Positions 1,879-32,000 are shown, counted from the stretch's first letter. The stretch is DNA of 32,000 nucleotides from Lachnospiraceae bacterium (GCA_029063085.1 JAIDOW010000068.1:1-32000), one strand, 5' to 3'. Numbers and translations: made by a program. The notes: generated from the letters alone by a model not told the origin.

Positions 1879-1965
1879 ATGTATTTTCAGTTACCACAAA
1901 AGGCCTTTCAATAGATGAACGACAGGATTTCCTAAAATGTGGCAGCAATTTTATAATTTCACTCC

Positions 1966-2112
1966 AAGTCAAATATCCCACAACAAGCTACAGGGCATGA
2001 TATAGATTATTTTTAGCAAGCCCGCTCCAAGAGACGGGATATTTAACCCTTGCGGCATACGTGAAATATCCATGCAAGCATGGCTATTTTCCTCATTGCT
2101 TGCAGGAATAAA
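1966..2112. repeat. Intergenic repeat, type B copy 2 (between dnaB and the ECF sigma gene)
   Basis: It aligns by eye along about 145 nt with 6400-6548. Shared blocks are GTCAAAT, GGGCATGA, TTTTTAGCAAG-hairpin-(G/A)TATTT(G/A)ACCCT, TGCAAGCA and AATAAAA. Confidence 0.6.
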
Positions 2113-2181
2113 AAAGAGCAGCATCTTTATGACTTTTGTAACAGCCATAAAATATGTGCCCTTCGTATACTTAATATATTG

Positions 2182-4057: not shown

Positions 4058-6133
4058 CTACATCTCCCCATCCGCCCGCATTCTTTCAAGCAGTTCGCGG
4101 ATCTGCTCTTTGGCTTCCTCTATGGTCAGGTCTTCCAACTGGGCACCTGCCACGGTTCCATGCCCGCCGCCGCCAAACTGCTCCATAATCACCTGAACAT
4201 TTACATCATCTATTGACCTTGCACTGATATACACCACATTACCAATCTTGGATAATACAAAAGATGCCCTTACATTATCTACATCCAGAAGCTCATTTGC
4301 CACCTTGGCTGCCAGCACTGTAGGACTGTCTACCCCCTCTGTGGGTACATCCGAAATCGCAAAATTATCCATAAACAACTCTGCACGTGCCACACCTTCC
4401 GATAACTGCTTATAGCTTTCCATATCTGTCCGGTATGCCTTGCGGACTCTCGTCATATCTGCACCGGATTTACGAAGAAAAGAAGCCGCTTCAAAGGTTC
4501 TGACACCTGTCTTTGTCACAAAATTATCTGTATCCACCAGAATACCCGCATACATCGCATCTGCTTCTGCCGGCCTTAACTTCGGTTTATCCATACTATA
4601 CTGTAAAATCTCTGCCACCATTTCACAGGCGGAAGAGGCATATGGTTCAATATAGGAAAGAATTGCATGTTCAATGATCTCTCCGCTCTGTCTGTGATGG
4701 TCAATCACCACAATATTTTTTGTATGGGCAAGAAGTTCCTCACACTCTGTATAAGTCGGTCGGTTCACATCCACTACAACCACCACCGTGTTAGGATCCA
4801 CTGCTTCTAATGCCTGTTCACTGTTAAAAAACATATCATCCGGATACACACTGCTTCCCATAAAACTATTCATGGCCGGGCGGATAGAACTGGTCACCTC
4901 ATTAATGACAATATGTGCCTTTTTGTCCATCATGGAAGCCAGACGGTAAATTCCCAGTGCTGCACCCAGACAGTCGATATCCGGTTTCTTATGACCCATA
5001 ATGATAACCCTGTCCTTTGTCACCAGCAATTCCTTTAATGCATGTGCTTTTACCCTCGCTTTTACACGGGTATTTTTCTCTGCCGACTGTGTCTTCCCTC
5101 CATAATAAATAATCTTATCTGCCTTTTTAATAACGGCCTGGTCACCGCCTCTTCCCAAAGCCAGATCCATTGCCATATGGGAATATTCATATGCTGTAGT
5201 ATAATTATCATGCTCCGGGTCAATACCTACCGCTATACTCAGGGTTACCGGAGTATCGTTTCCGATATTGATACTTCTCACTTCATCAAGCAGGGAAAAC
5301 TTTCCCTGTTGCAGCTGCTCCAAATGCTGCTGCTGACAGACAAAAATATACTTGTCTTTTTCCAGCTTCTTAATAATGGCATCAGCACTCTGCATATATT
5401 TTGTAATCTTTCTGTCAATCAATGCCACTAAAAGAGAGCGGCGGACTTCCTCTGTAGAATCCATTGCCTCTTCATAATTATCAATATAAATATGTCCTGC
5501 TACCAGCTTGATCTTCTCTTTTTCTTCTAATGCTTCAACCAGTTCCGTTTCATCATAAAGATAAATTGCAAATAACACATCATCTTCCTCTGCATCCCCG
5601 GCAAGCTCCCTGTTTAAAAGACTCTGTACTTCCACCTTACGAATCTCCACAAGGTAGTTCCGATCCGCCTGGAAAATGTGCACCGTTCTATGGTTTTCGT
5701 CCTCCGGTTCCATTTGAAACAATTCCAATGTAATATCCGTAAAAATATGCTGGATATGCTTACGCATATGCTGTTTATCACTTTTAACCGTATCATAAAA
5801 CGCCTTGTTGCTCCAAAGAACCCGCCCATTTATATCCACCAATGTATAAGGAATTGCCAGTTCCTTGATCAGCTCACTCTGAACAGAACCATGTGCAAAG
5901 CTAAATGCCACCAGATCGGACATGATATTCGGACGCTTTCTAAAATACAGATAACCTGCCGTTGCCAGATGTATTAAAACAAACGCTGTAACAATGATGC
6001 CGCTGGTAATATCTACACTATACACCACACCATTCATAACAAGTAATATGATTGTCATGTAAAATGGTATCTTTAAATATTTTTCAATTTCCTTTCGCAG
6101 TAAATTCTTCTCTTTCATAGCAGTCTCTTTCAT
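4058..6133 (-). CDS. gdpP: GdpP/YybT-type DHH/DHHA1 phosphodiesterase (c-di-AMP phosphodiesterase family)
   Basis: It has two N-terminal TM helices, a degenerate GGDEF segment (LGRGGDQAVIK), DHH motifs (HKKPDIDCLGAALG, VVDVNRP, VIDHHR) and the DHHA1 motif GGGGHGTVAGA. The ORF extends to a GTG at 6169. The ATG at 6133 follows AAGGTGG, and the ATG at 6118 is also possible. Confidence 0.85.
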   Translation of the reverse strand: MKETAMKEKNLLRKEIEKYLKIPFYMTIILLVMNGVVYSVDITSGIIVTAFVLIHLATAGYLYFRKRPNIMSDLVAFSFAHGSVQSELIKELAIPYTLVDINGRVLWSNKAFYDTVKSDKQHMRKHIQHIFTDITLELFQMEPEDENHRTVHIFQADRNYLVEIRKVEVQSLLNRELAGDAEEDDVLFAIYLYDETELVEALEEKEKIKLVAGHIYIDNYEEAMDSTEEVRRSLLVALIDRKITKYMQSADAIIKKLEKDKYIFVCQQQHLEQLQQGKFSLLDEVRSINIGNDTPVTLSIAVGIDPEHDNYTTAYEYSHMAMDLALGRGGDQAVIKKADKIIYYGGKTQSAEKNTRVKARVKAHALKELLVTKDRVIIMGHKKPDIDCLGAALGIYRLASMMDKKAHIVINEVTSSIRPAMNSFMGSSVYPDDMFFNSEQALEAVDPNTVVVVVDVNRPTYTECEELLAHTKNIVVIDHHRQSGEIIEHAILSYIEPYASSACEMVAEILQYSMDKPKLRPAEADAMYAGILVDTDNFVTKTGVRTFEAASFLRKSGADMTRVRKAYRTDMESYKQLSEGVARAELFMDNFAISDVPTEGVDSPTVLAAKVANELLDVDNVRASFVLSKIGNVVYISARSIDDVNVQVIMEQFGGGGHGTVAGAQLEDLTIEEAKEQIRELLERMRADGEM

Positions 6134-6399
6134 TATCCACCTTACTGTACTATTTATAACCGTCTGCACTATACAGACCTTCTTTTAACAAATATATTCA
6201 TACATCGTAACCAGTCCGATTATTCGTCGGATACTGTACTAGTATATCATTTTTTCATATTTCACACAACTCATTTATAATCTTCCCAACAACAAAGAAT
6301 AATTTTCTTTAATAATATATATTTTCCTATCATAATTATAATCACTAGCGTAACAATCAAATTTTTCATATGTACGGTTGTTTCGTAGCTATGACAAAA

Positions 6400-6548
6400 G
6401 CAGTCAAATCCCCCGCTGCAAGCAATGGGGCATGACCTAGCTTCTTTTTAGCAAGTTCGCCCCAGAGAGGCGGGGTATTTGACCCTCGTGGCAGTCGCCA
6501 AATACCTGCAAGCAGTCACTTGGCTCTTTGCTCGCGGAAATAAAACAA
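6400..6548. repeat. Intergenic repeat, type B copy 1 (between the TA pair and gdpP)
   Basis: It aligns with 1966-2112. It also contains the GCCAAGTG...TATTTGGCGACTGCCA module (gene-sense strand) shared with the type A repeats. Confidence 0.6.
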
Positions 6549-6733
6549 ATTGTACGTAAACTAAGAAGATATGAAATTAATATACAGGATAATCCAGAAG
6601 AAAATCTCAAGAAGAATTAAAAGAAAAATCGGAAGCATATGAAAAGGCAGAAAAGACTAAAGAATTATGCAAAAAGTGGATTATTAAATATGATAATTAC
6701 TTTAAAGTTATAAAAGATGATAGTGAAAATCCG

Positions 6734-7078
6734 TTAATCCCAATAATCGTCAGTTTCCTGTGTAGTGGTTCTTATACTAAACAATTTCCACATAAAATCT
6801 TCCCTCTCATTATAGATATCTGTTATTCTTACTACAGTATCTTCTATCCGATAGAAAACATAATTATGTTGTACATACAACATTCTATAATCACAAGGTA
6901 TTCCGATAAGCTTTTCTACAGATGGTCCTTTGTTTTCAAACTGTTGTAAATCCCGAAATGACTTCGTCATTTCATGGATTACAGCTTTAGCCTTTTTCTC
7001 GCCATATCTGGCAGCAATATTCCGCTTTATTTCGTGCAATTTTTCAATAGCATCCGGAGAATATTGTAATTTCTTCAA
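6734..7078 (-). CDS. Type II toxin, RelE/ParE superfamily
   Basis: 114 aa. It overlaps the upstream antitoxin ORF by 4 nt. The ParE-like pattern ...YRMLYVQHNYVFYRIEDTVVRITDIYNERED... is present. Confidence 0.7.
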   Translation of the reverse strand: MKKLQYSPDAIEKLHEIKRNIAARYGEKKAKAVIHEMTKSFRDLQQFENKGPSVEKLIGIPCDYRMLYVQHNYVFYRIEDTVVRITDIYNEREDFMWKLFSIRTTTQETDDYWD

Positions 7079-7344
7079 TCAAATACCCCCAATTCTTTTT
7101 CTACATCATCTGCTGAAACCCAACCTTCCTTATCTGCACGTTCTTCTACTTTTTTTAGCTTGGAAAACAACGTATAAGCTGCCCGATAATGGTCAAGCTC
7201 ATCAATTTCTGCCATAGTAAGAATCCCATATTCACCATGGCCATTTCGTGTAAGATAAACTCTATTTGATGCATCTACCTGTTTTAACACTTCTGTATAA
7301 TTCCTTAAATCTGATATTGGTTTAATATTGGGCATATCAATCAA
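7075..7344 (-). CDS. Type II antitoxin, Phd/YefM family
   Basis: 89 aa. The N-terminus IKPISDLRNYTEVLKQVDASNRVYLTRNGHGEYGILTMAEIDEL is typical of the Phd/YefM fold. It lies first in a two-gene overlapping cassette. Confidence 0.7.
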   Translation of the reverse strand: MIDMPNIKPISDLRNYTEVLKQVDASNRVYLTRNGHGEYGILTMAEIDELDHYRAAYTLFSKLKKVEERADKEGWVSADDVEKELGVFD

Positions 7345-7529
7345 CTCCTTTGGTTACATTATATACGATATATTATACCCCCGCAAGTAAATTCACATGC
7401 AAATTTGTCAACAAAAACTTTATTTACTCTATTTTAGTCATAAGGCAAATTTTGTTTTTTATTTGCATTTTAGTATGAACTCCTTATCTGTGTTTCCATT
7501 ATGAATAGAAAGTTTCCCCACAGCCTGTT

Positions 7530-8312
7530 CTATGCGTATATGTCAAATTCCGTCTGCTGCATGGGCATCCCGTATTCATAGATGACCACCTTTTCATCCC
7601 AATCCATCTCATAGGCAGGGAGCCTGGCAATCCCGTAAATATTAAAACGTTTCCGTTTCATATACGTTCTGTATTCTTCCTTGGGATAATACATCATTAC
7701 AAATACACGGCGGGGATGTTCTTCTACGCTCTTAAGAACATTTTCCATAACCTGTTCAAATATATTAATCTCAAAAGGATTGAAAAAATAAAAAACATTA
7801 TCTTCCGGTTTGATTACATATTCCTCTGCTTTCCCGTTGATTATCTCTATTTTTTCACTACTGCCCCGGAATCTGGTATTAAAATAGGCCCGGTTATCCA
7901 GTGCCATCTCATATAGCTCCTCATCTACCTCTATTCCACATACCTCACACTGAAACCTCTGATTTACATAAAACAACACCCTGCCTTTCCCGCAGCCAAA
8001 ATCCACAAGGCGGTCGTACTTACTCAGAACATCTTCCATTTCATCAAAAGCACAAATGAGCCCACTATAGCTGGTAGGCTCATATCTGTAATAATCATCG
8101 TGAAACCGGTTATTATACACGATCTCCGTGCTCTCAATCCCCAGGAAACGCTCAAATTTATCATTTTCAAAATATTTTGGTATCTGCCCTTTTTTCTTTC
8201 TCACTGCTATGGCATCTCCTTTTACCCACACTATAACCTGCAACTCGGAAACCATTCTTCTATCACATAAAGATAACCTGTAATCCGTCGGCCACGGCCT
8301 GTTCTGGCTCAC
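7530..8312 (-). CDS. Class I SAM-dependent methyltransferase
   Basis: The SAM-binding motif I LVDFGCGKGRVLFY is followed by an acidic residue at the end of strand 2 (GIEVD). Its GTG start overlaps the TGA of the DUF1934 gene (GTGA). An internal ATG start is also possible. Confidence 0.7.
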   Translation of the reverse strand: MSQNRPWPTDYRLSLCDRRMVSELQVIVWVKGDAIAVRKKKGQIPKYFENDKFERFLGIESTEIVYNNRFHDDYYRYEPTSYSGLICAFDEMEDVLSKYDRLVDFGCGKGRVLFYVNQRFQCEVCGIEVDEELYEMALDNRAYFNTRFRGSSEKIEIINGKAEEYVIKPEDNVFYFFNPFEINIFEQVMENVLKSVEEHPRRVFVMMYYPKEEYRTYMKRKRFNIYGIARLPAYEMDWDEKVVIYEYGMPMQQTEFDIYA

Positions 8313-8725
8313 CTTGCCTGCACCTTAAAATGAACCTCACACTCCGAAACAAAATTATAATTAATATCTAATGTATACTGAATGTTTACCTGTATTTCCT
8401 CTTCCTTTTCCACAAGGGATAACCCATGAGTCGCCACATCAATCTGTATCGGACCCGCCACGGTATTGTAAACAGTAGAGTTCTTACGGTCAATGTCAAA
8501 TAAAAGAAAAGAATTGTTCCCGCCTTTTTTGGTCATCTCAAAATGCCCGTCACAAAATTTTACAAGGTTCCTTGTAACAGGACCATTATCTTCCGGCTGT
8601 TCCTCATATAATACATAATGCTTTCCATTTTTTAAATAGTAAGTGCCCGTTGTAACCAATTCAATGGGCTCATCTTCTATATCGAACTGCATACCTGACA
8701 CTGTAATTAAAACATCCTTTGTCAT
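8309..8725 (-). CDS. DUF1934 (YwiB-like beta-barrel) protein
   Basis: 138 aa with the pattern typical of YwiB/DUF1934: ...YYLKNGKHYVLYEE...VTRNLVKF..GHFEMTKKG....LLFD......YNT..GPI. Confidence 0.7.
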   Translation of the reverse strand: MTKDVLITVSGMQFDIEDEPIELVTTGTYYLKNGKHYVLYEEQPEDNGPVTRNLVKFCDGHFEMTKKGGNNSFLLFDIDRKNSTVYNTVAGPIQIDVATHGLSLVEKEEEIQVNIQYTLDINYNFVSECEVHFKVQAR

Positions 8726-8740
8726 ATTTTGACCTCTCTA

Positions 8741-8845
8741 ACCAGTTTTGCTTTGCAAACTTTGTTTGCTGCGATAGTCTCCAAATGTATATACAAATAT
8801 CTACGCTTGGCTTATTATTCACACAAATTGATTGCCTTGCCCGTA
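8741..8845. repeat. Intergenic repeat, type A copy 1 (abuts the RBS of the DUF1934 gene)
   Basis: It aligns with 9751-9850 at roughly 87% identity over about 86 columns (by-eye count), plus a 9-nt indel. It also aligns with 29815-29896. Confidence 0.8.
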
Positions 8846-8923
8846 CATTTTTTATAACCAATTGCGAAACTATTTCATGCACATTATACCTTTTAAATAA
8901 ACAGATGTTAATAATCCTTAAAA

Positions 8924-9727
8924 TTAGTAACTTTCTATATCCACAACCTTTGTATCCGTTACATGACACGGAAGCACGCTGTCTGCAAAAGAAATAAATT
9001 TATCCACACCGTCACTGACATAGTATTCATATTCCGGCTTATGTTTATCCATATTGAGAATTCCTTGTTCTGCCAATAATTCCTTCAGACTCTTAGCCGT
9101 CTCAAAAGCCGGGTTCACCAGATGAACACGTTCTCCCATAAAACGTTTGATCGTGTTACGAATTAACGGATAGTGCGTACAGCCAAGTACCAGTGCATCC
9201 ACTTTATATTCCTTCATCTCATGCAGGTATCTCGCCACGATATCGTCCGTAACCCGGTCCTCCAAAAGCCCCTCCTCTACCAAAGGCACAAATAAAGGAC
9301 ATGCCTTGCTGACTACAGTAACTTCCGAATCCAGTTCCCTGATATAATCGTTATAAATACCGGATTTGATCGTACTCTCAGTTCCAATAATACCTACATT
9401 ACCGGTTTGGGTCGTCTCCACTGCCATTTTCGCACCCGGTTTTACTACACCAATAACCGGTATATCAATCTCCTTGTCAATCTCATCCAGTGCCAGTGCA
9501 CTGGCAGTATTACATGCTACTACAATTGCCTTCACGTCTTTTGTACGTAAAAAACGGACAATCTGTCTGCTATATTTTAACACGGTTTTCTTTGATTTGG
9601 AACCGTACGGAACTCTGGCAGTATCACCAAAATACACCAGATCTTCACTCGGAAGCTGACGCATAATCTCTCTTGCCACTGTAAGACCGCCGACACCGGA
9701 ATCAAATACACCTATTGGATTATTCAT
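8924..9727 (-). CDS. murI: Glutamate racemase
   Basis: DSGVGGLTV, VVACNTAS and LGCTHYP motifs are present. The ATG at 9727 follows AAAGGAAAC. The longer ORF reaching 9796 only translates the upstream repeat. Confidence 0.9.
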   Translation of the reverse strand: MNNPIGVFDSGVGGLTVAREIMRQLPSEDLVYFGDTARVPYGSKSKKTVLKYSRQIVRFLRTKDVKAIVVACNTASALALDEIDKEIDIPVIGVVKPGAKMAVETTQTGNVGIIGTESTIKSGIYNDYIRELDSEVTVVSKACPLFVPLVEEGLLEDRVTDDIVARYLHEMKEYKVDALVLGCTHYPLIRNTIKRFMGERVHLVNPAFETAKSLKELLAEQGILNMDKHKPEYEYYVSDGVDKFISFADSVLPCHVTDTKVVDIESY

Positions 9728-9750
9728 ATGGTTTCCTTTCTGGCGTTTTA

Positions 9751-9850
9751 TGACCAATTTTGTTTTGCACACCTTGTTTGCTGCCATAGTCGCCAAATGT
9801 ATCTACACTGGGCTCATTATTCGCACAAATTGATTACCTGCTTGCCCACT
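9751..9850. repeat. Intergenic repeat, type A copy 2 (between ddl and murI)
   Basis: See copy 1. The core is TTGTTTGCTGCCATAGTCGCCAAATGTATCTACACTGGGCTCATTATTCGCACAAATTGATTACCTGCTTGCCC. Confidence 0.8.
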
Positions 9851-9870
9851 GGGCTGGCTGCTCCCAAAAA

Positions 9871-10953
9871 TTAATATTTCCGCTTAAATGCAAGCTGTAT
9901 CTGTTTCTCCACCAGCTCTTCTATACTGATTCCCTGGGCTTTCCAGAGCATTGGATACATACTGATGGATGTAAAACCGGGAAGCGTATTAATTTCATTA
10001 AAGATAACCTGATTGGTATCCTTCTCCAAAAAGAAATCCACACGGGAAAGTCCGTAACCGTCTACTGCGGAAAAAATAGCCTTTGCAGCATTTCGTATCT
10101 CTTCTGTCTTTCCCTCCGGAAGCTCTGGCGAAATCACCGTCTTGGACTCTGCATTGGTATATTTGGCATCAAAATCATAAAATTCAGCTGCGGCTAAAAT
10201 CTCACCCACCCCGGAAGCCTCTGGCTGATCCGCACTTCCAAGCACGGCACACTCGATCTCTCTTCCCACGATGTTGCGCTCTACCAGAATTTTGGTATCA
10301 TGCTGTGCAGCAAGTTCCAATCCTTTTATCAGTTCCCCTTTGTCATGTGCCTTGGAAACACCTTTAGAAGAACCTGCTTTACTGGGTTTGATGAAAACCG
10401 GATAGTCTAATTTTTCTTCTACACGTCTGACCAAAGCATCCATCACACTGCTATCCTCTTTTGCCTGTTCTGTCTCCTTAGCCCGCACCAGTACATAATC
10501 TGCCTGCTGAATGCCTAAATCATCAACGATTATCTTGGTATAAACCTTATCCATGGCCACTGCGGATGCCAGCACACCGCATCCTACATACGGAATATTT
10601 GCCATTTCAAATAATCCCTGAATTGTTCCGTCCTCACCATACATACCGTGTAATACCGGAAAAATCACATCAATTTTTTTTGTGGTTACTTCGTCACTCT
10701 TGGAAATGATGATCTCCTTTTTAGCGGCATCCGGCGAAAGAACTGCCAAAGTATCTGAATTCACCCAGCTTCCGTCTTCTATCTTTTCGAGAGAATCCAC
10801 TAAAAGCCAGCTTCCTTTTTTTGTAATTCCAATATATGTGATGTCATATGTATCCTTATTGATCGCTTTTGCTATAGTCTGTACCGAAATACAGGAAATC
10901 TCATGTTCGGAGGACTGCCCACCAAAAATAACTGCGATGTTTAACTTTCCCAT
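9871..10953 (-). CDS. ddl: D-alanine--D-alanine ligase
   Basis: 360 aa with FGGQSSEHEISCIS, VLHGMYGEDGTIQG, the ATP-grasp block FIKPSKAGSSKGVS and NEINTLPGFT. Confidence 0.93.
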   Translation of the reverse strand: MGKLNIAVIFGGQSSEHEISCISVQTIAKAINKDTYDITYIGITKKGSWLLVDSLEKIEDGSWVNSDTLAVLSPDAAKKEIIISKSDEVTTKKIDVIFPVLHGMYGEDGTIQGLFEMANIPYVGCGVLASAVAMDKVYTKIIVDDLGIQQADYVLVRAKETEQAKEDSSVMDALVRRVEEKLDYPVFIKPSKAGSSKGVSKAHDKGELIKGLELAAQHDTKILVERNIVGREIECAVLGSADQPEASGVGEILAAAEFYDFDAKYTNAESKTVISPELPEGKTEEIRNAAKAIFSAVDGYGLSRVDFFLEKDTNQVIFNEINTLPGFTSISMYPMLWKAQGISIEELVEKQIQLAFKRKY

Positions 10954-11028: not shown

Positions 11029-12987
11029 TTAACAAATTTCCGAGCCGTGAGGCATATCCTTTTCCGCTGTCACCAATGCAAGATTACCTTCTGCATCCTC
11101 TGCACAAAGAATCATACCCTGTGATTCGATTCCTGCTAATTTAGCGGGTTTTAGATTTGTCACAACGACCACTTTTTTACCTACCATATCCTTCGGAGAA
11201 TAATGCGCCTTGATACCGGATACGATCTGCCTTACCTCACTTCCAATCTTTACCTTGGAGCAAAGTAATTTCTTTGATTTCTCCACTTCCTCACAGGCGA
11301 TCACTTCCCCGATCTGAAGCTGAAGCTTATCAAAATCTTCAATGGTTATCTCCGGTTTTTTCTCAATATCGATTCCCGGATTGTCATCCACCGCTTCCGG
11401 CTCTGGTTCAGGTTCCGGCTGCATTTCTTCTACCTTAGCCATAACCTCTTCCAAATCCAGTCTCGCAAATAAAATCTCCGGTTGTTCCGTAACCTTCGTT
11501 CCCGACTTGTATCCACCAAATTTCACCAAATCATTTACTTTACGCTTTGGAGCATTTAACTGGGTAAGAATCTTTTGTGCAGTCTCTGGCATAAATGGCT
11601 CTAACAAGGTTGCGCCTATTACGATACTTTCTACCAGATTATAAAGGACTGTTGCCAAACGGTCTTTTTTGTCCTCTTCCTTTGCAAGTGCCCAGGGCAT
11701 GGTCTCATCAATATATTTATTACAGCGTTTAAACAGATTGAAGATTTCTGTTATGGCCTCTGCCACTTTAAGCTTATCCATTGCACCCGAAACACGGATT
11801 CTGGTATTTAATGCATAATCCATTAATTCTTTATCAACATCTTCATTTACTTTTTTATTATTTACTTCCCCGTCAAAATATTTATTTGACATTGAAATAG
11901 TACGGTTCACCAGATTTCCAAGGGTATTTGCAAGATCGGAATTCAGACGTTCTACCATCAGCTCCCAGGAAATAACCCCATCATTTTCAAATGGCATCTC
12001 ATGCAGAACAAAATAACGGACTGCATCCACACCGAATAATTCCACCAGATCATCCGCATAAATTACGTTTCCTTTGGACTTACTCATCTTACCATCACTC
12101 TGGATTAACCACGGATGCCCGAATACCTGCTTGGGAAGGGGCAGATCCAAGGCCATCAGCATAATTGGCCAGTAAATCGTATGGAACCTCAAAATATCCT
12201 TACCGATCAGATGCAGATCACAAGGCCAGTATTTATCAAACATCCTGTCACTCCGACCCTCTAAATCAAATCCTAATCCGGTAATATAGTTTGTCAACGC
12301 ATCTATCCATACGTATATAACATGCTTTGGATCAAAATCAACAGGAATCCCCCACTTAAAGGATGTACGGGATACACAAAGATCCTGAAGTCCCGGTAAC
12401 AGGAAGTTGTTCATCATTTCATTTTTACGGGATTCCGGCTGAATAAAATCTGGATGTGTATTAATATAATCAATCAGCTTATTCTGATATTTTTTCATCT
12501 TGAAAAAATATGCCTCTTCCTTAGCCGGCTCTACAGAACGTCCGCAGTCCGGACATTTCCCATCAACAAGCTGGGATTCCGTAAAAAATGATTCACACGG
12601 GGTACAATACATTCCCTCATATTCCCCTTTATAGATATCTCCCTTGTCATATAATTTTTTGAAAATCTTCTGAACCTGTTTCTCATGATCTTCATCCGTT
12701 GTTCGAATGAATTTATCATATGATGTGTTCATTAAATCCCAAATCCGTCTGATTTCTCCGGCAGTCTGGTCTACATATTCCTTTGGTGTAACCCCTGCTG
12801 CTTCCGCTTTTTGTTCTATCTTTTGTCCATGCTCGTCTGTTCCGGTCTGAAAACGAACATCATACCCTGCGAATCTCTTATATCTTGCAATACTGTCTGC
12901 AAGCACGATTTCATAGGTATTTCCAATGTGCGGTTTGCCTGAAGTGTAGGCAATTGCTGTAGTAATGTAATACGGTTTTTTTGCCAT
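11029..12987 (-). CDS. metG: Methionine--tRNA ligase with C-terminal tRNA-binding (EMAPII-like) domain
   Basis: HIGN (KPHIGNTYE) and KMSKS motifs, zinc-knuckle cysteines (CTPCE...CPDCG) and a C-terminal domain ending LKPAKLAGIESQGMILCAED. Confidence 0.95.
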   Translation of the reverse strand: MAKKPYYITTAIAYTSGKPHIGNTYEIVLADSIARYKRFAGYDVRFQTGTDEHGQKIEQKAEAAGVTPKEYVDQTAGEIRRIWDLMNTSYDKFIRTTDEDHEKQVQKIFKKLYDKGDIYKGEYEGMYCTPCESFFTESQLVDGKCPDCGRSVEPAKEEAYFFKMKKYQNKLIDYINTHPDFIQPESRKNEMMNNFLLPGLQDLCVSRTSFKWGIPVDFDPKHVIYVWIDALTNYITGLGFDLEGRSDRMFDKYWPCDLHLIGKDILRFHTIYWPIMLMALDLPLPKQVFGHPWLIQSDGKMSKSKGNVIYADDLVELFGVDAVRYFVLHEMPFENDGVISWELMVERLNSDLANTLGNLVNRTISMSNKYFDGEVNNKKVNEDVDKELMDYALNTRIRVSGAMDKLKVAEAITEIFNLFKRCNKYIDETMPWALAKEEDKKDRLATVLYNLVESIVIGATLLEPFMPETAQKILTQLNAPKRKVNDLVKFGGYKSGTKVTEQPEILFARLDLEEVMAKVEEMQPEPEPEPEAVDDNPGIDIEKKPEITIEDFDKLQLQIGEVIACEEVEKSKKLLCSKVKIGSEVRQIVSGIKAHYSPKDMVGKKVVVVTNLKPAKLAGIESQGMILCAEDAEGNLALVTAEKDMPHGSEIC

Positions 12988-13185: not shown

Positions 13186-13498
13186 AAAAATAGCCCGCCT
13201 TTATCAACTTTAAAGGCGAGCTTATCTCTCACGGTACCACTTTAATTCATCTGCATATTACTATGCTGACCTTACTAGCTGGCATCTGCCAGCTTACACT
13301 ATAACGGGTGCACCCGTCACCCTGCTAAGAAACTGCTATTGGATACTCATTTCTTAATTCATCCAATCCATCCTCACAGGAGAAGCTCCAAGACCATCTT
13401 CAATCTGTTCCATCTTTCCCTGTTCTCAGCTTATCAGGTTCTCTGTTAAAAACTTTCCAAATCTACTCTTCTTTTCATCGCTCATTCTATTTTCGACT
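13186..13498 (-). promoter_or_regulatory. T-box riboswitch leader of metG (predicted Met-specific)
   Basis: The minus-sense T-box sequence AAAGTGGTACCGTGAG lies at 13228-13243. The terminator GCTCGCCTTTA/TAAAGGCGGGC (13193-13221) with a TATTTTT tail overlaps the antiterminator. Stem I elements (GAGCGATGAAAAGAAGAGTAG, AGAGA, GCTGAGAAC) lie near 13430-13490. Several AUG triplets (for example 13412-13414) sit in the expected specifier region. Confidence 0.8.
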
Positions 13499-28152: not shown

Positions 28153-29802
28153 CTATTTTTCCAATACCAGCACCTCATATGGTCTTAATGTGATAAACTC
28201 TGAAGGTTCTCTTTTTGCTTCCTCACATCCATAATTTCCAAGAATTTTATGATAATCTCTCCATTCCTTCTGACTCTCTACGACTATCTCATTTTCTCCA
28301 AGATTATTTAGAACAATCAGCTCCTCTTCCCCTAAAGTTCTTCTGTATGCCAAAACGTCCGCATTCTCCTCCACAAAAAATTCTATCCTTCCCTTAGCAA
28401 TCACTTCTTTTTCCTTCCGCAGACGAATCAGTTTCTTATAAAATTCCAAAATGGAGTCCGCATCACAAAGCTCCCGTTTTACATTAATCTGCTGGTAATT
28501 ATCTGAAACAGAAATCCAAGGTTCTACATTCGAAAACCCAGCATAATTTGCATCCTCCCACTGCATTGGGGTCCTGCTGTTATCACGGGATCTGGCTGCC
28601 AAAATGTCCAGAGCCTCTTTCTCACTTTTTCCCTGTTCCGTTAAAATCCGATAATAATTCAGGCTTTCCACATCATGGTATTGTTCAATACACTCAAAAT
28701 GGGGATTGGTCATCCCGATTTCCTCACCTTGATAAATATATGGTGTTCCCCTCATCAAATGAACACAGGCCGCCAGCATTTTTGCAGACTCCTTCCAATA
28801 TTTCTTCTCATCTCCCAACCGGGAAACAATCCGCGGCTGATCGTGATTACACCAGAATACTGCATTCCACCCATCTGCTTCCTGCATACCCTCCTGCCAG
28901 GTTTGAAACAGCTTCTTTAAGGCATGTTTATCCGGTTCCATTAATTCCCATTTTTTTCCATCCTTGTAATCCACCTTTAGATGATGAAAATTAAAACACA
29001 TGGACAATTCTTTTTCCGATGGCTTGGAATAACGGATACAATTTTCTAAAGATGTGGAAGACATTTCTCCCACCGTCACCAGTTCTTCTATTCCTGTATC
29101 CCTCACCAGTTCTTTTAAAAATTCATGCACATGATGGCCGTCTGTATAAAAATGTCTGCCGTCTCCGGTCAGATCATCTTCAAATACCTCCGGCTTGGAA
29201 ATCAGATTTACTACATCAAAACGGAAACCTTTGACTCCTTTTCCCTTCCAGAAACGAATCACATTTTTTAACTCTTCACGAACCTCTGGATTTTCCCAAT
29301 TTAAATCTGCCTGTGTCACATCAAAGAGATGCAGATACCATTTTTGCAAATCCGGTATATACTCCCATGCCGGTCCCCCGAATTTAGACTGCCAGTTTGT
29401 AGGGATTTTATCCGGAGTTCCGTCTTTCAATATATAATAATCCTGATATTTTTCCTCTCCTGCCAGTGCTTTCTGGAACCATTCATGGCTTGTGGAAGTA
29501 TGGTTAAATACCATATCCAGCATAATCCCTATTCCTTTTTGTCCTGCTTTCTCTATTAATTCTTCCACATCTGACATCGTTCCGAATTCCGGTGCCACAC
29601 TAATATAGTCCGCTACATCATATCCGTTATCCTTTTGCGGCGAAATGAAAAATGGTGTAAGCCACAGGTAATCAATACCCAATCCCTCCAAATAATCCAG
29701 TTCATCAATAATGCCACGAATATCTCCCACGCCATCTCCATTAGAATCTTTAAAAGATTTCGGATAGATCTGATATATTACTTTATCTCTAAAATCTGCC
29801 AT
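28153..29802 (-). CDS. GH13 alpha-glucosidase of the oligo-1,6-glucosidase / trehalose-6-phosphate hydrolase (TreC/TreA) type
   Basis: DKVIYQIYPKSFKDSNGDGVGDIRGI, GFRFDVVNLI (nucleophile region), VGEM and FWCNHDQPR are present. The ATG at 29802 follows GGAGGG. The upstream extension to 29856 only translates the repeat. The phospho-sugar role is inferred from the PTS partner. Confidence 0.85.
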   Translation of the reverse strand: MADFRDKVIYQIYPKSFKDSNGDGVGDIRGIIDELDYLEGLGIDYLWLTPFFISPQKDNGYDVADYISVAPEFGTMSDVEELIEKAGQKGIGIMLDMVFNHTSTSHEWFQKALAGEEKYQDYYILKDGTPDKIPTNWQSKFGGPAWEYIPDLQKWYLHLFDVTQADLNWENPEVREELKNVIRFWKGKGVKGFRFDVVNLISKPEVFEDDLTGDGRHFYTDGHHVHEFLKELVRDTGIEELVTVGEMSSTSLENCIRYSKPSEKELSMCFNFHHLKVDYKDGKKWELMEPDKHALKKLFQTWQEGMQEADGWNAVFWCNHDQPRIVSRLGDEKKYWKESAKMLAACVHLMRGTPYIYQGEEIGMTNPHFECIEQYHDVESLNYYRILTEQGKSEKEALDILAARSRDNSRTPMQWEDANYAGFSNVEPWISVSDNYQQINVKRELCDADSILEFYKKLIRLRKEKEVIAKGRIEFFVEENADVLAYRRTLGEEELIVLNNLGENEIVVESQKEWRDYHKILGNYGCEEAKREPSEFITLRPYEVLVLEK

Positions 29803-29814
29803 TCCAATTCCCTC

Positions 29815-29896
29815 CATTTGCTGTGATAACCGCCAAATGTGTATGCATCCCCACACTCGGTTTGTTATTTACACAAATTGATTGCCTGTTTGCACG
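29815..29896. repeat. Intergenic repeat, type A copy 3 (fills the PTS-hydrolase spacer)
   Basis: CATTTGCTGTGATAACCGCCAAATGTGTATGCATCCCCACACTCGGTTTGTTATTTACACAAATTGATTGCCTGTTTGCAC aligns with copies 1 and 2. It lacks their gene-proximal ~25 nt. Confidence 0.75.
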
Positions 29897-29900
29897 TAAT

Positions 29901-31880
29901 CTATGATTCATAAGTTAATACAGTTGTTACCTTTTCTTCTGCATGGATTCCATCCTTAAACTGAATATTTTCTGCATTGCCTTCCTCTGTGATGATACAT
30001 ACCGTTACATCCCGCTTTCCAGCCTTTTTTATCTTTTCCCGGTCAAATTTAATCAGTGGTGTTCCGGTCTTTACCTGCTGACCCTCTTTTACCAGATACT
30101 CAAATCCTTCTCCCTGCATTTCCACAGTATCAATTCCTATATGAAGCAACATCTCCATTCCGTTTCCCATTGTCAGACCGCAGGCATGGCGGGAATCTGC
30201 CATTAAAACTGTCACCTTTGCATCTGCCGGTGCATATAACACATCACTTTCCGGAATGATCGCAAATCCATCTCCCATAACACCCTCTGAAAATACACCG
30301 TCATTTACTTCCTTTAATGAAATGACCTGACCTGTTAAAAATGCCTTTAAATCCTTCCCTGTTCCAGTTGCGTTCCCTTCTTGTCCCGTTACAGCCACAG
30401 CATCCTCTGTCATATCCATACCTGCTGCCGTATCGTCTGATTCTACAGCTGCTCCATTCTTTTCTTCAGAAGTGAGTTTTTTCTTTCCGATTATCAACGT
30501 AAGCCCCAGCGGAATCACTATTGCAATTACCATGCAGATGAAGAAGCTAAACATATACTTTGGCTGAATGGATAAAATACCCGGAATACCACCAACTCCA
30601 ATTGCGTTTGCAGTAGTCCCTGTTGCCACACAGACAACGGCAGCACATGCAGAACCAATCATTCCACATAAGAACGGGAATGTATATTTAAGATTCACGC
30701 CAAAGATAGCCGGTTCCGTAACACCCAGATAACAGGAAATGCAGGCAGGAACATTTACTTCCTGTGCCCTTGCATTTTTCTTTTGAAGTAAGATCATTCC
30801 AAATACAGCTGAACCCTGTGCGATATTAGATAATGCGATCATCGGCCACAGCATGGTTCCGCCATAATCTGCAATCAATTGTAGATCAATGGCATTGGAC
30901 ATATGATGAAGTCCTGTAATAACAAGGGGTGCATAGATAAAACCAAAAATGGCACCAAAAACAATTTTAAAGGAACCTGTAATTCCGGCATATACCACTG
31001 TAGAAATTGCTGAACCTATTTTCCAGCCAATTGGTCCGAGAATAAAATGTGCGGCAATAACGGCCAATACCAGACTACCAAATGGAACGACAATCATGGA
31101 AACCGCCTGTGGTGTGATCTTACGGAAAAACTTCTCCAGATATACCAGTGTAAATGCCGCCAGAATCGCAGGAATCACCTGTGCCTGATAACCGATCATA
31201 TTGATTTTAAAACTTCCAAAATCCCATACCGGAATATCTGCTGCTGCCGTTCCCGCCACTGCATACGCATTTAAAAGCTGTCCTGATACCAGCGTCAGAC
31301 CAAGAACGATTCCAAGCATTTGTGTGGTTCCCATCTTTTTTGTTACTGACCAGCAGATTCCTACCGGCAGCATATGAAATACAGCTTCACCGATCAGCCA
31401 TAAAAAACTGTCAATTCCGGCCCAGAGCTGACTGATATCACACAATGTCTTTGTTCCATTTTCAAAGAAATAAATACTGTCAATACAGTTACGGAATCCT
31501 AAAATCAAACCTCCGGTAATAATCGCCGGAATCAATGGTGCAAAAATTTCCGCTAATGCCGTTATGATTCTTTGTAAAACATTCTGGTTCTGCTTGGCTG
31601 CCTGTTTTACTGCATCTTTTGAAACTCCCTCAATCCCTGCCACAGATATAAAATCATTGTAAAAATCCGATACTGTATTACCGATAATAACCTGGAACTG
31701 TCCGGACTGTGTAAAGCTTCCCTTTACCACCTTCATTGACTCAATCTTTTCAATGTCAGCCTTTCCCGGGTCGTTCAACACAAAACGCATACGTGTCATA
31801 CAATGAGATACTGCTGCAATGTTTTCTTTTCCGCCCACAAGCTGAAGCAGTTCTTTTGAATCTTCAACATATTTACCCAT
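29901..31880 (-). CDS. PTS EIIBCA component, sucrose/trehalose/beta-glucoside subfamily (trehalose-type likely)
   Basis: The EIIB segment is AAVSHCMTRMRFVL...GQFQVIIG. A ~10-TM EIIC follows. The C-terminal EIIA-Glc has LLHIGIDTVEMQGEGF. The SD is GGGAGGAAG. Confidence 0.9.
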   Translation of the reverse strand: MGKYVEDSKELLQLVGGKENIAAVSHCMTRMRFVLNDPGKADIEKIESMKVVKGSFTQSGQFQVIIGNTVSDFYNDFISVAGIEGVSKDAVKQAAKQNQNVLQRIITALAEIFAPLIPAIITGGLILGFRNCIDSIYFFENGTKTLCDISQLWAGIDSFLWLIGEAVFHMLPVGICWSVTKKMGTTQMLGIVLGLTLVSGQLLNAYAVAGTAAADIPVWDFGSFKINMIGYQAQVIPAILAAFTLVYLEKFFRKITPQAVSMIVVPFGSLVLAVIAAHFILGPIGWKIGSAISTVVYAGITGSFKIVFGAIFGFIYAPLVITGLHHMSNAIDLQLIADYGGTMLWPMIALSNIAQGSAVFGMILLQKKNARAQEVNVPACISCYLGVTEPAIFGVNLKYTFPFLCGMIGSACAAVVCVATGTTANAIGVGGIPGILSIQPKYMFSFFICMVIAIVIPLGLTLIIGKKKLTSEEKNGAAVESDDTAAGMDMTEDAVAVTGQEGNATGTGKDLKAFLTGQVISLKEVNDGVFSEGVMGDGFAIIPESDVLYAPADAKVTVLMADSRHACGLTMGNGMEMLLHIGIDTVEMQGEGFEYLVKEGQQVKTGTPLIKFDREKIKKAGKRDVTVCIITEEGNAENIQFKDGIHAEEKVTTVLTYES

Positions 31881-31904
31881 AATACTTCCTCCCTTTCTTG
31901 TTTG

Positions 31905-31987
31905 CTTGTTTAAACAAGTTTCTATGCTTTATTTATACCATACTTGTTTAAACAAGTCAAGCGGTTTTTTCATCTTGTTCAAACAAG
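31905..31987. promoter_or_regulatory. Three copies of a 14-bp palindromic operator
   Basis: CTTGTTTAAACAAG occurs at 31905-31918 and 31943-31956 (both perfect palindromes). CTTGTTCAAACAAG occurs at 31974-31987. The three sit in the 5' UTR, inside the promoter spacer and upstream of the -35. Confidence 0.7.
31932..31960 (-). promoter_or_regulatory. Promoter of the PTS operon
   Basis: Minus-sense TTGACT (31960-31955), a 17-nt spacer, then TATAAA (31937-31932). The spacer is occupied by operator copy 2. Confidence 0.6.
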
Positions 31988-32000
31988 TAAGTGTTTTTCA

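Follow-up and report, generated by a model that had tools for sequence, protein, structure and literature searches.

Why should murI, the gene for glutamate racemase, lie between two almost identical non-coding sequences of about 100 nucleotides (nt) in the genome of a gut bacterium? The window considered here is a 32,000-nt stretch of DNA from a Lachnospiraceae bacterium (GCA_029063085.1 JAIDOW010000068.1:1-32000). The initial annotation of it noticed the two sequences and a third one, called them type A, and proposed that they belong to a structured RNA or to a hairpin-based mobile mini-element. The genes (assigned by Pfam) and the parts of the elements are arranged as follows, with scores from cmsearch using two covariance models, R1 and R2.

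8309..8725, minus strand: DUF1934 gene, downstream of A1
8737..8847, minus strand: A1, a full type-A unit between murI and the DUF1934 gene (R1, 122.9 bits)
8764-8827, minus strand: core hairpin of A1 (R2, 79.2 bits)
8852..8868, minus strand: extra 3'-end module UUCGCAAUUGGUUAUAA, directly upstream of A1
8883..8911, minus strand: sigma-70-like promoter TTAACA-17-TATAAT (11/12) in the murI-DUF1934 spacer, upstream of A1
8924..9727, minus strand: murI (glutamate racemase; Asp_Glu_race), bracketed by A2 and A1
9749..9848, minus strand: A2, a type-A copy between ddl and murI (R1, 100.5 bits)
9776-9829, minus strand: core hairpin of A2 (R2, 60.1 bits)
9840..9865, minus strand: older 5' arm GGGAGCAGCCAGCCCAGUGGGCAAGC
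9871..10953, minus strand: ddl (D-Ala-D-Ala ligase), upstream of A2
28153-29802, minus strand: GH13 hydrolase gene, downstream of A3
about 29805..29896, minus strand: A3, a type-A copy between the PTS EIIBCA and GH13 hydrolase genes (R1, 45 bits)
29816-29877, minus strand: core of A3 (R2, 59.4 bits)
29901-31880, minus strand: PTS EIIBCA gene, upstream of A3

A repeat search of the window confirmed that near-identical elements bracket murI, since 8741-8795 matches 9753-9807 (55 nt, 87%) and 8798-8837 matches 9800-9839 (40 nt, 88%). The spacings of these blocks are 1012 and 1002, so the two copies differ by one 10-nt indel; a single indel had been proposed, with a length of 9 nt. The third copy matches at 29817-29887 with 77-80% identity. 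Two conserved blocks each have three exact matches in the 32 kb, all on the minus strand, while the shuffle expectations were 0.12 and 0.06 and none of 100 shuffles reached three. The copies had been described as non-coding, and all three are indeed intergenic: A1 is confined between the murI stop at 8924 and the DUF1934 gene start at 8725, A2 between the ddl stop at 9871 and the murI start at 9727, and A3 between the PTS EIIBCA stop at 29901 and the GH13 start at 29802. The genes around the elements are on the minus strand, and in A1-A3 about 13-24 nt separate the end of the element from the next ATG. Mini-ORFs that would begin at the AUG of AAUAAUGAGCC were ruled out, there being no conservation of them among copies.

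The full type-A unit is about 100-110 nt long and has an outer stem, AAUCAAUUU / AAAYUGGUU, around a long irregular hairpin and a short one. In A1 the 5' arm is AAUCAAUUU and the 3' arm is AAAACUGGUU, and between them lie the core hairpin and the small hairpin GCAAAC-AAA-GUUUGC. The consensus fold calculated by RNAalifold from six type-A sequences (A1, A2, and four copies from the species-representative MAG) places the same two hairpins within an outer stem AAUCAAUUUG / CAAAAUUGGU. A3 is without the small hairpin, and the 3' partner of its outer stem, GAAUUGG, falls between the ribosome binding site (RBS) and the AUG. Pairing of the outer arms GTCAYCAATTT / AAATTGGTGAC extends over 9-11 bp in two of the copies found elsewhere (L041 and L056a) and is weaker in A1-A3, and homology between copies runs past these arms.

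The core hairpin is irregular and 55-65 nt long; its base, GAGCCAAGYG...CAUUUGGCGAY, is conserved and its apex variable. The long hairpin begins with a 4-bp stem UGYG/CRCA, followed by a bulged purine and a 3-bp stem AUA/UAU; its middle is an asymmetric, purine-rich internal loop with 5' AYRA opposite 3' GRN, and its upper part is the conserved stem GCCAAGYG/CAUUUGGC, beyond which the length of the apex varies. This hairpin was found in all copies, in keeping with the earlier description of a kept base, GCC.../...UUUGGC, below a differing apex. The minimum free energy fold of A3 is a three-part nested stem (z = -1.75); the complete A1 and A2 RNAs showed no advantage over shuffled sequence in folding.

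Further copies had been predicted, and they exist. A scan for the 3' motif in 185,579 species genomes (one genome each) returned 42 loci, of which 4 are true copies, all in MGBC129221, the representative genome of an uncultured mouse-gut Lachnospiraceae species; the remaining loci mostly reflect a conserved coding motif of gpmI (NTFGEYISK), and the rest look like chance. MGBC129221 holds the A1-site copy and three more elsewhere (L041, L048, and L056a), as well as shortened and diverged forms. The type-A copy number therefore looks low, at 4 exact-motif loci in MGBC129221. Model R1 identified two short forms that consist of the outer stem only, at L056 719-759 (minus strand) and at the A1 site of strain L021 (9942-9983), with four nucleotides in place of the 73-nt interior. 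Both could have arisen from the long form if the segment that runs from AATTT|G to AGTTT|G/T was lost. In the L056 short form the loop, UUUUCUUUGAAAACU, may resemble the boxA of Firmicute rRNA leaders. The alignment shows that the extra 3'-end module beside A1 is shared with the L048 copy, a sign of a mosaic or tandem build.

The diverged members recognized by R1 include window positions 6431-6560, which are part of a second pair of repeats, type B.

1950..2135, minus strand: B2, a type-B repeat between dnaB and an ECF sigma-factor gene, with its core at 2045-2108
6385..6570, minus strand: B1, a type-B repeat that follows a ParE toxin gene and precedes gdpP
6734-7344, minus strand: ParE-toxin/antitoxin cassette

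B1 and B2 are 74% identical, and each has two long hairpins in direct order with related stems (YCAARU/AUUUGR), whereas type A has a single hairpin and an outer stem. In type B a 5' hairpin homologous to the type-A core (in B1 at 6481-6540; R2, 55.1 bits) is joined by a long second hairpin. Type B was also considered as a small-protein gene, which stops and indels rule out. Type-B-like copies nearly always have on their left a run of T and then an A (TTTTA|TTCC), a conserved stretch that may be the element's own.

The wider family extends beyond this species. In a metagenome scan, in which the other matches were chance, one relative (L068) lies after a tRNA-Leu gene and a terminator. Among viral contigs, where most other matches were likewise chance, relatives occur in L174, L187, L206, L230, L231 (two copies), and L232, and the higher-GC contigs L231, L206, and L232 carry two-hairpin units near-identical to type B. 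The viral contig L187 (IMGVR_UViG_3300022601_001174, 4228-9999) has about 30 tRNA genes in one array, and a slot between two of them, at 8355-8418, is taken up by a hairpin almost the same as the 5' hairpin of B1. The L174 element is situated 12 nt before the RBS of a phage capsid-like gene, in its 5' untranslated region (UTR); those of L206 and L230 directly follow intrinsic terminators; and those of L231 lie beside a tRNA 3'-end fragment and divergent from the start of an mtnN-like gene. Outside this species, relatives are also found between convergent genes; such sites, like those behind terminators and beside or among tRNA genes, are typical of selfish repeats. In L068 and L230 a closing stem, P1, surrounds two or three hairpins to make closed multi-stem junctions, and P1 has compensatory changes. 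Several relatives come from much higher-GC DNA, with the hairpin base almost unchanged. A blastn comparison of the type-B element to annotated phage and plasmid collections gave no match.

The initial annotation had not recognized any named RNA family, and database searches agree with it: Rfam 15 has no match over the elements at the gathering score or at E<=10, and none on the relatives L068, L174, L187, and L056 at E<=1. The only near-threshold Rfam match in the window is a T-box leader at 13209-13487 (minus strand), before metG (methionyl-tRNA synthetase, 11029-12987), with 86.8 bits and E = 1e-17 against a gathering score of 93. A literature search found no description of the repeat.

Is the pairing itself kept? 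An alignment of 15 core sequences, annotated with the named hairpin structure, was used to build R2. In this alignment 80.5% of the paired cells can pair, compared to 30-41% when the partners are slid, and both sides have changed in 6 of 17 pairs, for example from AUA/UAU to GCA/UGC or from U-A to C-G. Between subfamilies there is a further compensatory change from UGYG/CRCA to CGCG/CGCG. The covariation score was 0.199; shuffles gave 0.133, and none of 500 came up to 0.199, in a test on few, related sequences and with a structure derived from the same sequence set. R2 also recovered B2, which was outside the training set, at 35.7 bits. The hairpin is thus maintained through compensatory changes, and the prediction of kept pairing holds, with covariation above all 500 shuffles. 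Of the 15 core sequences, 13 retain one particular G-U pair, and the hairpin base, this G-U pair, and the purines of the internal loop are conserved across genomes of about 40% to about 60% GC. Such conservation fits recognition by a trans-acting factor, and that factor could be RNA-binding. On the question of strand, counted pairs amount to 80.5% in the sense and 81.3% in the antisense direction, and the sense fold is more stable in 14 of 15 sequences. The use of G-U pairs as proof that the sense strand is the functional one was withdrawn, since pair counts are equal on both strands and only folding energy favours sense.

At 10 of 11 independent sites in the species the element is gene-sense and upstream of a start codon, which upholds the orientation bias that had been predicted, and the distance from copy to start codon is 13-60 nt. 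The genes that follow are functionally unrelated (DUF1934, murI, GH13, gdpP, ECF sigma factor, MATE efflux, CorC/CBS, DUF3795, and an AraC-type regulator). The proposal that the element is a dedicated leader of housekeeping cell-wall genes was not sustained: in relatives it is not conserved ahead of murI, and the other copies stand before unrelated genes. Two family members, B1 and the L048 copy, sit at the 3' end of toxin-antitoxin modules; in L048 (2963-3313) the type-A copy is directly downstream of a MazF/PemK toxin gene.

The sequence that came with A1 may also carry signals for transcription. The spacer that bears the TTAACA-17-TATAAT site is missing from relatives, and the A1 spacer seems to bring a promoter of its own. 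Ahead of the L056 and L041 copies are -10-like boxes and a small 5' hairpin. An internal promoter, TTGTGY-N17-TAGATA (present in 5 of 6 copies), was set aside as a poor match without the final T and uncalled by the promoter scan. Neither the A1 nor the A2 element contains a terminator-like site; A-rich sequence, not a U-run, follows the hairpins. Sequestration of the RBS is not consistent among copies. Another promoter region of the window, upstream of the PTS EIIBCA gene (about 31890-31990, minus strand), has three copies of a palindrome, CTTGTTTAAACAAG, one of them a close variant. These surround a TTGACT-17-TATAAA promoter-like site, and in locus L250 a GntR/UTRA regulator gene is divergent. 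The palindromes are probably repressor operators.

Comparison with relatives shows how recent the murI elements are likely to be. The comparison set consists of nine loci (about 190 kb) from relatives with MurI 80-93% identical. The order ddl-murI-DUF1934 is kept in 9 of 9, with spacers of 10-92 nt whose sequence is unrelated to the elements, and searches with R1, R2, and blastn found no copy in these 190 kb. The orthologous sites are element-free even in relatives with 92-93% identical MurI. Because the spacers of the relatives are short and element-free, A1 and A2 are additions to a once-compact operon. A relative has a group II intron reverse transcriptase gene (RVT_1 and GIIM; L094 4296-5690) near ddl, unrelated to the repeat.

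Turnover can be followed within the species as well. Strains with an identical DUF1934 protein differ at almost every element site, so that presence/absence polymorphism is seen between close genomes. For example, strain L021 has the outer stem only at the A1 site, its B2 is replaced, and relative to it the ParE-toxin/antitoxin cassette and B1 of the window are an insertion. At the A2 site other strains have a diverged element, 32 nt shorter. A clean 31-nt deletion, suggested there by a MAFFT alignment, was dropped, as the model alignment indicates a full-length but diverged element. The older 5' arm at 9840..9865 is homologous to the 5' half of that diverged element, and A2 of the window looks recombinant, a cross of an older resident element with a type-A unit. 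In L020 (18100-18230, minus strand), between a 200-aa gene and a response-regulator gene, there is an antisense composite copy, made of a core hairpin and a short form; the sequence of the window is different there. No consistent target-site duplication was found, the empty sites being too diverged for boundaries at base level, and no 5-bp direct repeats were recognized at the element ends. Neither a parent transposase nor an exact insertion boundary could be defined, and the Pfam lists for the element loci (about 80 kb of the species) contain no Y1 transposase or RAYT gene.

It is reasonably probable, then, that the type-A elements are a small, non-autonomous mosaic hairpin repeat that has recently spread into the spacers of one mouse-gut Lachnospiraceae species. 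The interspersed repeat is suggested by the restriction to one lineage, the turnover between strains, the mosaic of long and short forms, the unrelated neighbours, and relatives that lie after terminators or by tRNAs. Of the two possibilities first proposed, structured RNA or mobile mini-element, the mobile or recently inserted part is the better supported, the spacers of relatives being compact and element-free. Its copies would have reached intergenic spacers through insertion and through recombination with one another. The combination of one-strand bias with two direct tandem hairpins in the longer relatives suggests that mobilisation may be of the single-strand, hairpin-recognising kind, as in REP/RAYT or IS200/IS605. 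Since nearly all copies run in the same direction as the flanking genes, with no terminator that way, they probably end up in leaders or intercistronic RNA, co-transcribed with their host genes; to place them in the mRNA, as was done at first, is thus reasonable. The hairpin would then be a structured spacer in the mRNA and may alter processing, stability, or translational coupling. Against a repeat speak the failure to define a target-site duplication, parent transposase, or exact insertion boundary; the low type-A copy number; the conserved base, G-U pair, and loop purines; and the RNA-like character of L068, L230, and L174.

The last two of these points are also a strength of a different explanation, in which an undescribed cis-acting structured RNA, either riboswitch-like or a leader that binds a protein, was recruited upstream of many genes; the core hairpin would be its sensing or binding domain and type A its minimal form. 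This is possible, if on balance improbable. The conserved nucleotides of the loop and stem base, the near-invariant G-U pair, and the compensatory changes between subfamilies (AUA/UAU to GCA/UGC and UGYG/CRCA to CGCG/CGCG) are what it would lead one to expect, as are the gene-sense bias at 13-60 nt before start codons and the greater stability of sense folds in 14 of 15; L174 does lie in a capsid-like 5' UTR, and the P1-closed junctions of L068 and L230 look like functional RNAs. However, a leader of this kind is hard to reconcile with orthologous sites that are unoccupied even at 92-93% identical MurI, with copies that vary from strain to strain, and with downstream genes that have no common pathway. 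One copy in the species is antisense, and relatives lie between convergent genes or point away from a gene start. The two strands have equal pair counts (80.5% vs 81.3%), the full A1 and A2 folds are no better than shuffles, and RBS sequestration is inconsistent. A neighbouring idea takes the bulged purine, the purine-rich asymmetric loop, the fixed G-U, and the often CUUG-capped apex of the core as the marks of an undescribed RNA class of Clostridia and phages, met in the junctions of L068 and L230, the capsid-like 5' UTR of L174, and the phage tRNA array of L187, and recognised by a host or phage factor, with the murI copies as working modules and not passive insertions; this is rather doubtful. 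If it were true, Clostridia and phages would share a new RNA module, with a binding partner that merits a search.

The copies might also have arisen without any mobility, by local duplication and gene conversion of one spacer, a “promoter/UTR propagation” through homologous recombination. The recombinant look of A2, in which an older resident element meets a type-A unit, fits with this, and so do the low type-A copy number and the flanking promoter-like -10 boxes and 5' hairpin that some copies share. It is nevertheless quite improbable, given copies on at least 4 MAG contigs with unrelated neighbour genes and homologous hairpins in unrelated higher-GC genomes and phage contigs, and the first placement into compact spacers would have had no homology for recombination. 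Finally, the inverted repeat GCCAAG...TTTGGC lies near promoters and start codons, where it could be a double-stranded DNA operator bound by a dimeric transcription factor. This is very hard to credit, as the half-sites are separated by distances that differ by 10 to more than 24 bp from copy to copy even though pairing is kept, and bulges and internal loops are conserved. An operator of fixed spacing was rejected because of the variable apex length, and an extruded hairpin fits instead.

If the elements are a recently spread hairpin repeat, essential cell-wall operons in an uncultured member of the gut Lachnospiraceae tolerate recent structured spacers of 100-200 nt, and such insertions, one of them with a promoter-like site, can rewire operon expression between strains. 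In this case the two covariance models could be used for masking or annotating the repeat in gut metagenomes.

How does the repeat compare to those already described? The best reading is that it is a new repeat of the bcr1, BOX, or REP/MITE kind, placed in this general kind and not in a named family, because the terminal repeats and duplications that define MITEs, and the short tagged palindrome of REPs, are either lacking or not clearly recognizable. The REP/RAYT and IS200/IS605-derived elements resemble this family in their imperfect hairpins with conserved bulges or mismatches and in their one-strand bias, and they resemble type B in having two similar hairpins in direct order and no long terminal inverted repeats. 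REPs are palindromes of 20-40 bp, tagged at one end with GTAG or CGTC (PMC3733652). In contrast, the hairpins of this family are 55-70 nt long and have no terminal tag, GTAG being found only inside the type-A apex.

The Correia/NEMIS MITEs are like type A in that they come in long and short classes differing by an internal segment, have arms that can pair in RNA, and are in some cases promoter-bearing. They are co-transcribed with their neighbours. Correia elements differ in their 26-bp terminal inverted repeats and TA duplication; type A has imperfect arms of 9-11 bp, and no duplication was found. The modular build of type A, in which short forms stand beside full units, is comparable to that of BOX in Streptococcus pneumoniae and the BIMEs of enterobacteria, which are intergenic, transcribed, and hairpin-forming, occur with or without a middle module, and vary in how their modules are combined. 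The modules and sequences of BOX and BIME are different, however, and these elements are not strongly gene-sense.

The closest described analogue of the type-A element is bcr1 of the Bacillus cereus group, a lineage-specific repeat of about 155 bp with positions that are not conserved between close strains; it is transcribed within UTRs and the spacers of operons, and compensatory changes have preserved its two independent stem-loops (PMC3184786, PMC3446304). bcr1 differs from type A in the 5-bp direct repeats at its ends and its higher copy number, and there is no evident sequence relation between the two. What bcr1 (bcr group A, about 100-155 nt, from a Firmicute) and type A have in common is the restriction to a lineage, the non-conserved positions, the stem-loops with compensatory change, and the sites in UTRs and spacers.
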